IMG/VR virus record: IMGVR_UViG_2541047926_000010 | Length of the DNA: 33,170 bases | Origin: a virus | Taxonomy: Duplodnaviria; Heunggongvirae; Uroviricota; Caudoviricetes | Reading direction: 5' to 3' (one strand) | Made by a program: the position numbers and the translations under genes | Shown here: positions 1 to 33,170 of the stretch, piece after piece | Layout: the number at the start of each line of letters is the position of its first letter | Numbering within the stretch: position 1 is the first letter of the stretch | Notes under the pieces: generated by a model | Seen by the model: the letters and a program-made list of their open reading frames with translations, nothing else | Told to the model about the DNA's origin: nothing | Database searches by the model: none

Positions 1-381
1 TTGACGAAGAGCTTCGCTGACATTAAAAATCTCAATCCACAAAAGGTTGGTTTGGGAGAAGCGGCAAAACGGAATGTGGGAACAGGGGAAAATCAGATAC
101 CTGATATGTCAGCTTATTCATCAGGATCTGGCTGGCAAAAATTGCCTGATGGTTCAATTGAACAGTGGGGAAGAATTAATTTCCCGAATAACGCCGCGGC
201 GGTATCTACAAATGTGACTTTCACCATTCCTTTTACGCAGGAGCCAGACGTAGTGATTGTATATGACGGCGGTTTTGGTGGTGGGAATATGTGGGGCGCA
301 ACTAACTGGACGAAAACAGGTTTCGTTGCTCATTGTAACTATGGCTTTGAAGGTGGAGCCTTCTACGCGAAAGGGCGTTAA
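1..381 (+). CDS. Alternative tail fibre C-terminal (variable) domain, 5' end cut by the window edge; part of the invertible cassette
   Basis: Plus-strand ORF ending at TAA 379-381, followed 2 nt later by a tail fibre assembly gene; shares an F-x-D-I-K ... L-G-L-G-E motif with the minus-strand tail fibre; Gly-rich C-terminus. Confidence 0.6.
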   Translation: MTKSFADIKNLNPQKVGLGEAAKRNVGTGENQIPDMSAYSSGSGWQKLPDGSIEQWGRINFPNNAAAVSTNVTFTIPFTQEPDVVIVYDGGFGGGNMWGATNWTKTGFVAHCNYGFEGGAFYAKGR

Positions 382-383
382 TT

Positions 384-824
384 ATGAAATATTTGTATGT
401 TGATAATCTGGCGTACCCTTATGCCCTCCAGTCTGTTTACGCTGCAAAAGGCCAATGGCCCGAAGGTAAAGGCGTGGATATAGACGAAGCTATTTTCAGG
501 GAATATTTCCATGATACGCCGCCTGACGGTAAGTACAGAATTACCGGAGACGATGGAATGCCAGCATGGGCAGATGTTCCACCGCCAACACGTGAAGAAC
601 AAATTGCATCAGCCGCAACTAAAAAGCAGCAATTGATTAATCAGGCCAACGATTATATGAACAGTAGACAATGGGCTGGTAAAGCGGCTATTGGTCGTCT
701 GAAAGGTGAGGAACTGGCGCAATATAATTTGTGGCTGGATTATCTGGACGCACTGGAGCTGGTCGATACTTCCAGTGCACCAGATATTGAATGGCCTACT
801 CCTCCGGCAGTTCAGGCCAGATGA
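384..824 (+). CDS. Tail fibre assembly protein (U'-like, alternative copy)
   Basis: 146 aa; C-terminal LDYLDALELVDTSSAPDIEWP motif parallels the minus-strand copy (LDYIDAVTATDTSTAPDVIWP); converges on the minus-strand tfa gene. Confidence 0.8.
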   Translation: MKYLYVDNLAYPYALQSVYAAKGQWPEGKGVDIDEAIFREYFHDTPPDGKYRITGDDGMPAWADVPPPTREEQIASAATKKQQLINQANDYMNSRQWAGKAAIGRLKGEELAQYNLWLDYLDALELVDTSSAPDIEWPTPPAVQAR

Positions 825-1398
825 CATCCGGCGCGGTGCTGGTATCTGTTGCCGTCACCGCGTCAATGTAATCCAGCACAGCGTTAAGCCGGGTTGTTTC
901 TGCCTGCGTCAGTTTCCGCCCGGCCTGTAATTTCAGTTGAATCAGACTAATGGAAGCCATTGCAGTATCAATCAGTGACTGACGCTGTGCTTCTGCCGCG
1001 TCTACTGCGGCGCGATGCTGTGCCTCAGTATCGGTCACCCATTTCTCACCATCCCATTTATCAAATGGCGTTAACGGGGCGATAGTGGTTGTATTTTCAG
1101 GGTAATCACCCGGAGCTGTGATTTCTTTTGATTCTCCTGTTTCGGTGCTATAGATGATTTCACCGCGATGGTCTGGCACATATTCCCATGAGTTAAAATC
1201 TGCAGAACGGCAGATTGCATAACCAGCTTTATGTGTAACTGGTGCATCTAAACAAGAACATGCCGGTATACCGACGCCAACCGCAAGATATTCAGTTGAT
1301 GTGGAAATATATTCCCGCGTTTCACCATCATAATTATAAATGGTAATGTCTCCCGCTTTTATGGCAATGAGTTCGTTATTTAATACGGCTTTATTCAT
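796..1398 (-). CDS. Tail fibre assembly protein (U-like)
   Basis: 200 aa; conserved tfa C-terminal motif; start overlaps the tail fibre stop. Confidence 0.8.
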   Translation of the reverse strand: MNKAVLNNELIAIKAGDITIYNYDGETREYISTSTEYLAVGVGIPACSCLDAPVTHKAGYAICRSADFNSWEYVPDHRGEIIYSTETGESKEITAPGDYPENTTTIAPLTPFDKWDGEKWVTDTEAQHRAAVDAAEAQRQSLIDTAMASISLIQLKLQAGRKLTQAETTRLNAVLDYIDAVTATDTSTAPDVIWPELPEE

Positions 1399-2150
1399 CA
1401 GGCAGCCCTCACGATATAATTAAAGGCAATGTTACGAGGTCGGTTTTCGTTTGCAGTTGGAACAACTCTGGAAGCATCGAATGTTACTCGCTTTGCATAA
1501 CCACCTTTAATTGAATCAGATGAAGCATCTCCGATGACGCTGGTTGTAAAAACGCCAGAATCAGAAGGGTAGATATTAAACCTGACATCCACTAATGCAC
1601 CAATTATATTTCGAATGGCATCTCCCTGTGACGAAAGCAAGCTACGGTTAGTATCTATTCCTCTTCCGTCATCCCAGCCACGAATGAACTCACCACGTAA
1701 ATCAGGCAATTTATTTGTCGGGTAAGCCTTTGCCAGTTCCGGGTATTCTTCAGCAGAAAAAGCCGCACCGTTGCATTTCAGCCAGCCTGTTGGCGGAGTG
1801 GCGGAAGGCCACGGAACAGGCACACCAACGGGTAATGCCGAACCTTCTCCCAAACCAAGATTTTCGAGAGCCGTTTTCACGGTGCCATCCGATTTGATAT
1901 CGCCAAACGGATTTGAGCGACTCAGTAACAGCGCTTTTAGTGCTGTTAATAACTGGTTTTGTTTAGAAGGATCAACATTAATACCGGCAGCGTTCAGGAC
2001 AGTAATAAGCTCCGACTGCGCATCTCTGACAGCCCCCTGCACGTTATTCAGATGCTCAGCATCAACAATGGTCCCCAGCTCACCTGTGAGCGGATTACCA
2101 TCATGGAAAAGATTATCCGGCGTCTGCACCGGTGGCATTAAGGGCCGCAT
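1398..2150 (-). CDS. Tail fibre protein with phage tail-collar domain
   Basis: 250 aa; tail-collar-like segment [31 protein letters not shown]; ATG 2150-2148 overlaps the upstream stop (TAATG). Confidence 0.8.
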
Positions 2151-2722
2151 TATTCATTCTCCTGATATGCGAAGTAGCAAAATGTATGGGCTGGTTTGAG
2201 ATCACGGAAGACGTCTTCAATAATCGGATCACCAAACGTTGTCAGGCGCTCACCTGCAGCTGAACTGCCTGAGCGAAAGCGATAGGATTGAGTTCCTGAG
2301 TTCTGAATATTGACGCGCCAGACCCAGATAATGTCTTCAACCCAGAGGCGATCACCGGCGCGGCCAACTCCCGCCCTGAAAGGTTGCGGTTCATCAATTG
2401 TGATGATGTAGCCAAGGTTGCTTGCCAACTGAGTAAAGTACGGAATACTGAGACCACCGACTTCAGCCAGTTTAGCCAGTACACGCTGCTGGCGTTGCTG
2501 GTATGTCGCACCTTCAGCAGGAGTAAGGTCCAGGACGCGTTCCCAGTCATACAAAAGGCTGCGTGCATAAAATGGAGTAACTCCACCTTCAACAAGCCCT
2601 GCAGACGCATCGAGAGTCTCAAAAACACCTGATTCAGATCGCAATGATGCATCAAGCAGAGGCTGGCCCGGGCTGTACGAAACAAGTGGCAGCAGACGAT
2701 TTAACAGCGTGAAGTAGCTCAT
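2150..2722 (-). CDS. Mu gp48-like tail protein (DUF2313-like)
   Basis: 190 aa; position between baseplate J-like protein and tail fibre; family recalled from memory. Confidence 0.65.
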
Positions 2723-7347: not shown

Positions 7348-9497
7348 TGCGGGCCTCCTGTTGAGCCGCGAACGGATTGTTCGCCGTTGTATTCATTAAC
7401 AGCTGATGCAATTTCACGTCCGTCTAATACCAGCTTTGTGGTGAGGTTAATTGGTTGTGATTTTTGTTGCTGCTGGGGCAGCAGATAAGACGGTACGCCT
7501 GTGGTTGCTGGTGTGTTTTGACCCATAGTGGCCGGTGAACTCCACCATGATTTGATCTCATCCACGGCATCCAGCAATCCGGGGCGGGCTTTTACTGCAT
7601 CCAGCATGCGTGCTGACTCACTGGAATAATTGTCGACCTTGAGTCTCGCACGCGCATCAGCATCGCCTCGCTCAACATGAACGAGCGGCGCATCCTGCAT
7701 GCCCTGGTAGAGTGCCAGCGGAGCAGCAACGCGCCCCAGAACTTTACCTGCACCACCCCGGATAGCGGACCAGGTGCGCCCCAGAGCAGTACCGCCAGCA
7801 GACGGAACTCCCCCTGCAGGAGAACCAGGCATTTTTATTCCGCCCCCCGTCAGGAAATTGAGCCCGGCAAAAGCTACAGCCGCTGCTGTCATGGCTTTAA
7901 TGCCAGTGGTGGCACCTGAAATAGCAGTTGTTAATTCAGGATATTCTTTAGCGTAATCGGTAAGTTTTGACGTCAAATCACCGTATAAATCGGCAATAGG
8001 TTTCATTGCGTCCTGTTCAGAGAACATTTTCTCAGATTCAAATTGTTGTGACTTAAAATCATTTGTTGATGACATCACATCAAAAGATGCAGCTCCAGCC
8101 CCAGCCGAATTCTCAGTTCCTTTTATTTGATCCTTTATAAACTCACGCTTCATTATATTTGTTTTCAAAGCAGTACTAGCTTGCTGGTCAGCAATTATTT
8201 TTGACGTGATTGAAGAAACAACAATATCCAAAGCAGCGAGGATATCGTTTTCTTTATCCGTACCTTTATATTTCTTTGCCTCGCCTCTTAGTTTTTGAAC
8301 TCTTTTATCTGCTGATACAATCCCCGATACGGCATTCATAACGATGTCTGGTGTACTTAACCCATTTGTCTTTTGCTCAGCCAAATAATCAATGTAACCA
8401 AGTGCCTTTCCACCTTTCCCTCTGAATTTATACTTCTTCAAAGTATTTTGAATATCAGCACTTGTGATTTTATCAAGTAAATTATTTACGTTAGTAGATG
8501 CAGCACTGTTATCACCTGCTGTTTCTGCATTTGCCTGTAATAAGGCTAATATCTTATCAAAATCACCAAGACCAGACATACCGATACTCTTAGCTTTGGT
8601 GAGCGTTAATGATAAAGATGATGCCATATCGGCAAGTTCATACTTGCCATTTTCTCCTGAACGAATCGACTTATCATAAACAGTAGGTAAGTCTTTCGGA
8701 TCAATGTCAAAGTTTTTTATAGCGCTGATACCAATTTTAGCCAGGTCTTGTGGGTTAGCACCTGATGCTGAAGCATAACGAGTAATATCAGGCAATATTT
8801 TCATAGCCGTCTTTTCATCAAGATTACCTGCAAACAGAGCATTCAGCGTATCCTGTGCAGCTTCAGGCGTACCGCCACCGTAGCGCACCGCATTGCGGAT
8901 AGCGTTATTGATAACGGGGATTTTTTTAATACGCTCAGGACCTGACAGCTCGTTATATGCAGTGTTAGCTATTTCTGCATTACGCCGTTCGTAAGCCATC
9001 TGACGCTGAACCGGGTCTTTTATGATCATACCTGCAGCGGTTAATCCACCGGTTACTGCTGCCACGGTTGAACCAGCAGCACGAAAGCGCTGCATGCGCG
9101 TCATTGAGTCATTCACGCCACCAAGTTCAGTCCGCAGCGTTTTGACCCTGTCAGTCATGGCCCTGAAAGCCCGATTCTGCTCATTCGCGGACAGCATGCC
9201 TGTGCGGGTAAGGCGGTTGTAGGCCGCCATGGTCTGCTGTATTTCACGCTGAATATCGCGCTCAGAACGAATACCAAGGGTAGATCGCGCCGAGCTGGCG
9301 CGACGGTATTCCTCAATCAGAGAACGGGAGGCACGAATCGCTGTGGTTGAGTTCTGCTGGCGGGATTTCGCCAGCTCGTCATCGGTCTTTTGCGCCGCTT
9401 TGGTATCACGGCTGATGCCCTGCAGTGCCTGCTTAAGCACTTTAGAGCCGGTATCACGGGCAAGCAGCTGCAGCGCCAGTTGTAAGTTACGCGCCAT
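7344..9497 (-). CDS. Tail tape measure protein
   Basis: 717 aa; Ala/Gly-rich helical protein downstream of the tail chaperone; ATG 9497-9495. Confidence 0.85.
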   Translation of the reverse strand: MARNLQLALQLLARDTGSKVLKQALQGISRDTKAAQKTDDELAKSRQQNSTTAIRASRSLIEEYRRASSARSTLGIRSERDIQREIQQTMAAYNRLTRTGMLSANEQNRAFRAMTDRVKTLRTELGGVNDSMTRMQRFRAAGSTVAAVTGGLTAAGMIIKDPVQRQMAYERRNAEIANTAYNELSGPERIKKIPVINNAIRNAVRYGGGTPEAAQDTLNALFAGNLDEKTAMKILPDITRYASASGANPQDLAKIGISAIKNFDIDPKDLPTVYDKSIRSGENGKYELADMASSLSLTLTKAKSIGMSGLGDFDKILALLQANAETAGDNSAASTNVNNLLDKITSADIQNTLKKYKFRGKGGKALGYIDYLAEQKTNGLSTPDIVMNAVSGIVSADKRVQKLRGEAKKYKGTDKENDILAALDIVVSSITSKIIADQQASTALKTNIMKREFIKDQIKGTENSAGAGAASFDVMSSTNDFKSQQFESEKMFSEQDAMKPIADLYGDLTSKLTDYAKEYPELTTAISGATTGIKAMTAAAVAFAGLNFLTGGGIKMPGSPAGGVPSAGGTALGRTWSAIRGGAGKVLGRVAAPLALYQGMQDAPLVHVERGDADARARLKVDNYSSESARMLDAVKARPGLLDAVDEIKSWWSSPATMGQNTPATTGVPSYLLPQQQQKSQPINLTTKLVLDGREIASAVNEYNGEQSVRGSTGGPQ

Positions 9498-12063: not shown

Positions 12064-12685
12064 TGTCTTTATCAGGCTGCTTAAGATCGTAACTGAGTCG
12101 GGTTTTCAGCCATGCCGGGTCATCGTCGGTGGTGGCACCGCCATAAATCTGGAACATATGATCAACATGGCCTTCCGGCGCATCCGTAAGCGGGTAACGC
12201 CCGTTCTCCAGCGCTGACTCAATCCATTTCGTGTCGAACTCGCAGGCAAAAACGGAAAATGCCTGAGTCTCTATCTGGGTGTTGAACAGCGTGCGCACGC
12301 GACCGGGGCTGAGCGGGTCAATTTTAATACCCGTATCCGCCATATCCTGACCGGACAGCAGACGACGAACGGCAGCAACAAGAATGTACGTACCGACCTC
12401 CTGTACGTGCGGCCCACCCATACGGGCCGCTTCTTCACTGCGCAGGCTGCGCTCGCCTACCACCACGACAAAGCGACCGTGCGTGACAAACCGTTGCCGT
12501 GCTGTGCTGTATGGCTCGGTTTTTTGGACCCCGCCAAACGTCACCCAGACGGCAGGCAGCTGGCGCAGTACCTCCGCAGGCTCGCCGTCCAGCTCGCCGC
12601 CGTAGGAGCGCACGTTCTTAGCCATACGGCCCATACCTTTGCGAAGCCGCTCCACGATGGCTTTTTCAATATCCGTAATCACCAT
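12026..12685 (-). CDS. Mu gp37-like head-tail joining protein (DUF1834-like)
   Basis: 219 aa; synteny; start overlaps upstream stop. Confidence 0.6.
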   Translation of the reverse strand: MVITDIEKAIVERLRKGMGRMAKNVRSYGGELDGEPAEVLRQLPAVWVTFGGVQKTEPYSTARQRFVTHGRFVVVVGERSLRSEEAARMGGPHVQEVGTYILVAAVRRLLSGQDMADTGIKIDPLSPGRVRTLFNTQIETQAFSVFACEFDTKWIESALENGRYPLTDAPEGHVDHMFQIYGGATTDDDPAWLKTRLSYDLKQPDKDNAAEDIISHEQN

Positions 12686-32942: not shown

Positions 32943-33170
32943 TTACAGGTCCTTGTTGTAACGGCTTGGCCAGATACTGGCGGGTTCTAAATTGAGAGCA
33001 TTTGCAATAATGCGCTCTCCTTTTGGATAAGAGCGTGCCAGCGCATTTTTCAGCGTGTCGGGTTTTAGTCCCGCGCTGGCGGAAAGGCCGCGCATAGTGA
33101 CGCCACGCTTGTGCAGCTCGGCGACAATATCAATGCGATGCCAGTCACGCTGTACTTCATTTATTTCCAT
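32943..33170 (-). CDS. ner: Ner-like DNA-binding early regulator; ATG falls on the last three bases of the window
   Basis: 75 aa; close resemblance to Mu Ner, including the C-terminal IIANAL..P..IWPSRY segment; directly upstream of the transposase. Confidence 0.8.
   Translation of the reverse strand: MEINEVQRDWHRIDIVAELHKRGVTMRGLSASAGLKPDTLKNALARSYPKGERIIANALNLEPASIWPSRYNKDL

Follow-up and report, generated by a model that had tools for sequence, protein, structure and literature searches.

The left end of the viral record IMGVR_UViG_2541047926_000010 (positions 1-2150 of a stretch of 33,170 nucleotides (nt), hereafter the window) is very probably a Gin/Pin-type invertible tail-fibre cassette, which is built like the G segment of phage Mu and flips at two 26 base pair (bp) sites, one at 35-60 and the other at 1845-1870. 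The type of system is already known, and the kind of switch is the well-known host-range switch. An earlier note, made from the letters of the window alone, had proposed a G-segment-like invertible cassette at this end. The proposal is borne out by the sites, by in-frame fusions of the fibre gene and by flipped copies in public assemblies, although the crossover does not lie where the note had placed it. Four open reading frames (ORFs) converge within 1-2150, two per strand, and form two modules of a fibre end plus a tail-fibre assembly (tfa) chaperone on opposite strands, just as the note had described (Table 1). The fibre protein has an exact match on one public contig, E. coli GCA_000461015.1, KE702178.1 (L001; related loci are numbered likewise), where window position equals 12151 minus the L001 position.

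Both sites have a 12 + 2 + 12 layout and lie in inverted orientation, with the central dinucleotide TT and the inner half-site GGTTTGGGAGAA in common. An exact inverted core of 14 nt, TTGGTTTGGGAGAA, is common to the two; it encodes (L)GLGE and is found at 47-60 on the plus strand and at 1845-1858 on the minus strand. This 14-mer occurs twice in the 33-kilobase (kb) window, once per strand, versus 0.00 occurrences expected from 100 shuffles. The inverted repeat extends to 19/21 nt (41-61 versus 1844-1864) and is both the best and the longest in the region. The fibre-side site differs at 1 of 26 bases from the stfP site of the e14 element in E. coli K-12, and the core is present at both K-12 e14 sites. 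A 16-nt inverted repeat has been published for the e14 P segment, 5'-TTGGTTTGGGAGAAGG (PMC12529663), and its first 14 nt are identical to the core. The site layout agrees with that of the e14 sites and of Mu gix (extracted from Mu), and hix sites are likewise 26 bp in length (PMC3798978). Megablast homology to other E. coli elements, namely e14-type and P2-type cassettes, breaks at 36-47 and at 1858-1869.

Table 1. Features of the tail-fibre cassette and its upstream neighbour (window coordinates).
Feature	Position	Strand	Details and basis
Invertase-proximal 26-bp site	35-60	+	ATCCACAAAAGG TT GGTTTGGGAGAA (outer half-site, 2-bp core, inner half-site)
Fibre-internal 26-bp site	1845-1870	-	Fibre sense CTCTCGAAAATC TT GGTTTGGGAGAA; encodes A-L-E-N-L-G-L-G-E, fibre residues 94-102
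Invertible segment	49-1856		About 1.81 kb, from one central dinucleotide to the other; contains both variable fibre ends, each with its chaperone gene; in-silico inversion
Tail fibre, whole ORF, 250 amino acids (aa)	1398-2150	-	Pfam Collar at residues 109-156
Constant fibre N-terminus	1871-2150	-	Residues 1-93, outside the invertible segment; conserved across relatives whatever cassette or orientation follows
Variable fibre end, now joined in frame to the constant part	1398-1844	-	Collar domain (Pfam)
Tail-fibre assembly chaperone, TfaE-like, 200 aa	796-1398	-	Serves the joined fibre end; Pfam Caudo_TAP, E-value 1e-32
Alternative variable fibre end, predicted silent in window orientation	61-381	+	Pfam Gp53-like_C; C-terminus of P0001 in flipped copies
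Second chaperone, 146 aa, predicted silent in window orientation	384-824	+	Partner of the alternative end; Pfam Caudo_TAP, E-value 2e-31
Fixed leader of the silent copy plus outer half-site	1-46	+	Leader L/M-TKSFADIKNLNPQK; between segment and invertase gene, outside the segment
Baseplate protein, Mu gp48 / YmfQ family	2150-2722	-	Pfam Phage_Mu_Gp48; immediately upstream of the fibre

The constant part of the fibre is 99.6-100% identical in the related loci L013, L031, L032 and L023 and about 98% identical in L014. The Collar-type end to which it is joined shares about 93% DNA identity with e14 stfE over 208 nt, and the chaperone gene that follows shares 89% with the e14 tfaE region. On the opposite strand, the ORF at 1-381 encodes 126 aa with a Gp53-like_C domain. 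By our reading of the sequence it starts at a TTG and is preceded by an in-frame TAG 8 codons upstream; a clear ribosome-binding site was not seen in the flanking sequence upstream of it. Its leader and outer half-site are the same in 9 of 10 related prophages and are analogous in position to the leader of e14 stfE. The F-x-D-I-K stretch of this leader (window 13-27) is weakly similar to the constant fibre region, lies outside the segment and is never part of a functional fibre; it appears to be a vestige. When 49-1856 is inverted in silico, two intact ORFs result, one of 208 aa, which joins the constant part to the gp53-like end, and one of 168 aa. In L013 and L014, both of them flipped, the gene after the 208-aa fibre is the second chaperone. 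With NCBIfam, neither the fibre and the chaperones nor the invertase could be assigned to a specific family. We also observed that the 45-65 nt directly upstream of the fibre-side site (minus strand, 1870-1934) match the tail-fibre genes of numerous unrelated phages and prophages at 89-98% identity (e.g., SfV, SfI, SfII, and SfIV); this is a junction sequence that is widely shared.

Both orientations of this prophage's segment exist in nature, as the earlier note had suggested should be looked for. A search of a set of 5.8 billion proteins found the predicted 208-aa flipped fibre at 100% identity and 100% coverage. Two contigs whose sequencing runs were independent of each other (SRR20075059 and ERR6876175) encode this protein (P0001), and both carry the same prophage at 98-99.6% identity over 10 kb. 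These contigs match L001 up to 10307 (window 1844) and resume at 12110 (window 41) on the opposite strand, and the overlap is the 21-nt repeat. Both reciprocal junctions are found in L023, from a 4.2-Mb scaffold, and in L032, an IMG/VR contig, with flanks 99.7-100% identical to the window contig and a related cassette in between. Flipped junctions are present in L014 and L031, which are identical to the window contig across the cassette (99.5%) and on the constant side (100%), respectively. The junction strings of the window orientation are CTCTCGAAAATCTTGGTTTGGGAGAAGGTTCGG and ATCCACAAAAGGTTGGTTTGGGAGAAGCGGCA, and those of the flipped orientation CTCTCGAAAATCTTGGTTTGGGAGAAGCGGCA and ATCCACAAAAGGTTGGTTTGGGAGAAGGTTCGG. 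Exact flipped strings were found in three IMG/VR contigs, and the window-orientation strings had no matches in IMG/VR. A survey of one genome per species returned seven loci (in Kosakonia, Trabulsiella, Chromobacterium, and others), which are uninformative on orientation because none has an invertase. Complete E. coli genomes hold one distant relative of the prophage body, FDAARGOS_1303 (L012), in which gp48 is 97% identical and a Gin-like invertase directly follows a single fibre and a single chaperone, with no alternative module.

Extension to the left locates an invertase gene just before position 1, where the earlier note had expected one. It lies on the minus strand, its ATG is 62 nt left of the window, and it encodes 186 aa. 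The protein is a small serine recombinase with an N-terminal catalytic domain (Pfam Resolvase, E-value 3e-37) and a borderline C-terminal helix-turn-helix match (HTH_7, 23.1 bits, just below the curated cut-off of 23.8 bits). Residues 1-185 align with the solved Gin structure 3uj3 (E-value 2e-55), and the catalytic residues Ser9, Arg7, Asp64-Arg65, and Arg68 are conserved in the invertase alignment. Classical members of the invertase group complement one another. The window protein is not a close sequence relative of them, since its identity is 49% to Gin, 52% to PinE, 51% to the FDAARGOS_1303 invertase and 44% to a Hin-like invertase, and since helix E and the Phe88-pocket position differ. 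Its nearest phage-borne relatives, at about 72% protein identity, are the orphan invertases of phi80 (PinL), mEp237 and HK225, and together with phi80 PinL and the mEp237 invertase it is part of a separate clade.

From the family membership of the enzyme and from the junctions, the adjacent invertase would be expected to pair the two inverted sites, to cut at their central TT/AA dinucleotides and to rotate the 1.81-kb segment. Codons 94-102 of the fibre gene (ALENLGLGE) contain the fibre-side site. In the window orientation, the constant N-terminus (residues 1-102) is followed by the Collar-type receptor-binding end and then by the chaperone of that end; after inversion, the same N-terminus is followed by the gp53-like end and the other chaperone. 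The gp48 gene ties the cassette to the late tail operon, and by analogy with Mu and e14 only the module facing this operon would be expressed, such that a lysogen population would yield phages with two adsorption specificities and a changed host range.

Several observations weigh against this reading. The invertase is merely 49-52% identical to Gin and PinE. A pair of Fis-like 15-mers, 48 bp apart at +23/+71, is found in four canonical invertase genes including those of Gin and PinE but is absent from the window invertase gene and its three clade relatives, by a degenerate consensus that makes for a weak test. The flipped copies belong to other isolates or samples and were seen between assemblies rather than within one culture, and the cassettes of L013, L023 and L032 have diverged, to about 87-92% identity where aligned and down to 73% in one stretch. 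The sites also equal those of e14, whose P segment is inverted by each of PinE, PinQ and PinR (PMC12529663), so that invertases resident in the host could catalyse the inversion in trans. The cassette would then flip at these same sites, with a Pin-type invertase resident in the host (e.g., that of e14, Qin or Rac) as the main catalyst, and the 186-aa gene would be weak, inactive or otherwise dedicated. The identity of the site core to that of e14 and the divergence of the adjacent invertase are both consistent with this, but the adjacent gene is intact and keeps all catalytic residues, and its exact protein is found on 688 contigs, with 108 member sequences in its 90%-identity cluster. In 9 of 10 relatives, moreover, the spacing between the invertase and the constant outer half-site is fixed, which argues for selection for the pair, and the family extends to Salmonella, Cronobacter, Enterobacter, and Citrobacter, hosts in which e14, Qin and Rac would not be expected. 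We therefore regard a catalyst acting in trans as unlikely and the adjacent invertase as the presumed one.

The divergence of the cassettes in the flipped loci L013, L023 and L032, which are mostly 87-92% identical, could also be attributed to a fossil cassette with dead sites or a dead invertase, whose orientation differences are old events or horizontal cassette replacements. In some relatives the inner half-sites do not match or just one module is present, and the orphan invertase of phi80, of the same clade, sits beside fibre pseudogene fragments. A fossil is nonetheless very unlikely here, as L014 and L031 combine a flipped junction with near-identity to the window contig, the two sites of the window keep an identical core and inner half, and all four cassette ORFs and the invertase are intact. 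The presence of inverted repeats would in principle also suit homologous recombination by RecA instead of a site-specific event. RecA needs far longer identity for efficient recombination than the 14-15 nt available, however, and the repeats are laid out as invertase sites with a cognate recombinase gene adjacent, which makes this route hardly credible. An equally negligible chance is left to the crossover as first proposed by the earlier note, between 1905 and 2150 and upstream of the shared F-x-D-I-K to L-G-L-G-E motif, with a partner site before position 1. The note had located the motif correctly (F5 to E20 in the plus-strand ORF and F82 to E102 in the fibre), and the F-x-D-I-K similarity does reach upstream of the GLGE core in both copies. 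It had also held that the motif DNA differs between the copies and that the repeat must lie upstream of it; instead, the GLGE part is the exact 14-nt inverted repeat, the crossover at 1845-1870 falls inside the LGLGE codons with the F-x-D-I-K leader left outside the segment, and the partner site is inside the window at 35-60. When 1905-2150 (L001 10001-10246) was compared with the left flank in search of an inverted copy, the sole candidate was a 14-nt, 86% match at chance level, and this placement was rejected. Flipped relatives switch at 1844-1864 and 41-61, and the sequence conserved across the family ends at the central TT. The cassette is genuine and probably active.

The enhancer of Hin contains two Fis sites at a 48-bp spacing. 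It is 65 bp long, with one Fis site at each end (PMC3798978). Besides the missing Fis-like pair, the window invertase departs from this model in its protein sequence, as its clade has GRYNFRNILSAAQYESDL in helix E where Gin, PinE and Hin-like proteins have GRFFFHVMGALAEMEREL, and as the positions of Hin F88, F105 and M109 are occupied by I, N and I. In Hin, Phe105 and Met109 lock the inactive dimer, and F105N and Phe88-to-Ile changes lead to hyperactive or Fis-independent enzymes (PMC4513852). A comparison of identity at third codon positions in five gene pairs, and thus in few sequences, gave no clear signal of an enhancer embedded in the invertase gene. A scan for sigma-70 promoters upstream of the gene found none on the invertase strand and two weak matches on the opposite strand. 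The invertase may work without canonical Fis/enhancer control or under a different control. Independently of this, the 126-aa ORF of the off state could be an expressed exclusion protein. The e14 protein StfE2 has the same length of 126 aa and the same build (short leader, GLGE, and gp53-like end), and was reported in a 2025 paper to block T2 adsorption (PMC12529663). We rate these proposals as tentative and rather unlikely; enhancer independence in particular is a lead rather than a result, because the Fis consensus test is weak and the synonymous-site check uninformative.

The window as a whole is a transposable prophage of Mu-like type in reverse orientation: ner lies at 33170, and the left end is occupied by the tail fibre. 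Nearly all of its genes are on the minus strand, and genes of Mu type span it, beginning with ner and transposase near 33170, followed by Mor, GemA, DUF3164, and the head genes, and further along by sheath, tape measure, gp44, gp45, gp46, gp47, gp48, and the tail fibre at 2150-1398; gp37 was also detected. The prophage is intact-looking. Its last gene is the invertase, and the 108 nt past the invertase stop codon are the same in eleven loci, ending in ...AAAAAAAATCGCCGCGCTACA, beyond which unrelated host DNA is found. An Rfam scan of the whole window had no matches. Within the tape-measure gene, 500 nt at 8151-8650 (L001 3501-4000) have a guanine-cytosine (GC) content of 37%, compared with about 50% around them.

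The prophage family is widespread, with the exact gp48 protein in 866 blocks of the assembly collection, the transposase in 102, and many, unrelated insertion sites. Names attached to identical proteins include E. coli, Salmonella, Cronobacter, Enterobacter, and Citrobacter. The order gp48 - fibre - tfa - (tfa') - (Sv') - invertase - prophage end is found in all of ten representative relatives. Their fibre ends are very different and include Collar, Gp53-like_C, Phage_fiber_2, Gly_rich_2, and T4_gp36 domains. On the fibre side, 7 of the 10 have an identical outer half-site and central TT, and on the invertase side 9 of them do; the inner half-site varies with the cassette, and at each site the family-conserved sequence ends precisely with the central TT. 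The mosaic joints are thus the crossover cores, which fits an exchange of cassettes between phages via the sites.

Most relatives (L020-L022 and L024-L029) have two inner half-sites that differ within one locus, e.g., GGTTTAAACGAA versus GGTCTGGGAGAA or CATTTGGAAGAA versus GGTTTAGTAGAT, and in some of them the fibre gene call begins late or one module is missing. Such copies may be locked or in decay; alternatively, the enzyme may accept inner half-sites that are very degenerate. Two assemblies contain two prophage copies each, GCA_050191705.1 (L026, L027) and GCA_040813435.1 (L028, L029). L026 and L027 have their fibre-side cassette in common and differ in the invertase (186 aa versus a Hin-like protein of 193 aa) and in the invertase-proximal sequence; the invertase module itself seems to be exchangeable. 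In the chromosome of E. coli E41 (L004 6001-7400), a 98%-identical invertase with the Mu-type terminal 108 nt (...CGCCGCGCTACA) sits within a P2-like prophage, flanked by the fibre genes on one side and the sheath gene on the other. It seems that an unrelated phage has either captured the Mu-type right end or received it by insertion.

The host DNA to the left of the window (L001 12885-19300; also L003) is an island of 66-70% GC, compared with about 50% in the prophage, which is inserted inside it. The island encodes a thioredoxin, a cation:proton antiporter, GGDEF and PsiE proteins, an HtpX-like M48 protease and an S1C protease. The insertion splits a gene annotated as 'RNA polymerase sigma factor' in uninterrupted copies, which are 100% identical. 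On plasmid pMCR10_2641_2, a cut-off remnant of this prophage end lies beside the heat-resistance genes hsp20-GI, yfdX, and hdeD-GI. The GC-rich island looks like a heat-resistance locus.

The cassette provides a well-documented natural case of tail-fibre switching by DNA inversion in a transposable prophage family across the Enterobacteriaceae (E. coli, Salmonella, Enterobacter, Citrobacter, and Cronobacter). Break points exactly at the 2-bp crossover core support the long-held idea that invertase sites are joints at which receptor-binding modules are shuffled between unrelated phages. For annotation, the switch explains fibre-gene differences between otherwise identical prophage copies, as well as the short orphan fibre ORF beside the invertase. 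If the invertase clade were indeed enhancer-independent, it would offer an interesting example of a serine recombinase that is naturally deregulated.

Amongst known systems, Hin/hix of Salmonella flagellar phase variation belongs to the same serine invertase superfamily and likewise uses 26-bp sites with a 2-bp core. In both systems, about 100 bp separate the nearer site from the 5' part of the invertase gene; in Hin, this part carries the enhancer. Hin flips a promoter, whereas the window segment flips gene ends, and the two enzymes differ at F88, F105 and M109 and their genes in the +23/+71 Fis-like pair, as described above. The orphan invertases of phi80 (PinL), mEp237 and HK225, which are the closest phage relatives (about 72%), have the same helix E, GRYNFRNILSAAQYESDL. 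A functional study of phi80 PinL was not found in the literature. In phi80 the invertase lies beside tail-collar gene fragments with no intact invertible cassette annotated, whereas the window cassette is complete.

The G segment of Mu, inverted by Gin, occupies the same genome position, after gp48 and with the invertase next to the right end, and follows the same Sc / Sv-U / U'-Sv' logic. As in Mu, the constant N-terminus lies outside the segment, two C-termini and their chaperones lie inside it on opposite strands, and a site is located inside the fibre gene at an N-L-G-L coding stretch. Mu has 34-bp identical repeats and the S and U proteins. The window sites match gix at about 17/26 positions by our own count, and Gin is 49% identical to the window invertase. 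The Mu segment is 3 kb long, compared with 1.8 kb in the window, and the constant part of S comprises about 170 residues, compared with about 100. Unlike Mu, the window prophage has no com or mom genes and ends 108 nt after the invertase. Homology to Mu does not extend to the sequence level, with 37% protein identity over part of the constant region of S; the cassette instead matches e14 and P2-type cassettes.

The nearest sequence relative is the P segment of e14 (ymfQ-stfP-tfaP-tfaE-stfE-pinE), a cryptic prophage of E. coli K-12. The e14 element is a defective lambdoid element, whereas the carrier of the window cassette is an intact-looking Mu-like transposable prophage. They also differ in the gp53-like module and silent ORF, which are merely about 27% identical, in the invertase (PinE, 52%), and in the invertase-proximal outer half-site and leader (ATCCACAAAAGG in the window versus TTTTCATAAACG in e14). 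Their tfaE and stfE-type modules share 89-93% DNA identity, and the 14-nt core and inner half-site are the same. The e14 segment has a published length of 1797 bp (PMC12529663), compared with about 1.8 kb in the window. In both, the gene order is the same, with a gp48/YmfQ-family gene upstream (ymfQ in the gp48 position) and TTGGTTTGGGAGAA repeats in stfP/stfE-type genes about 1.8 kb apart.

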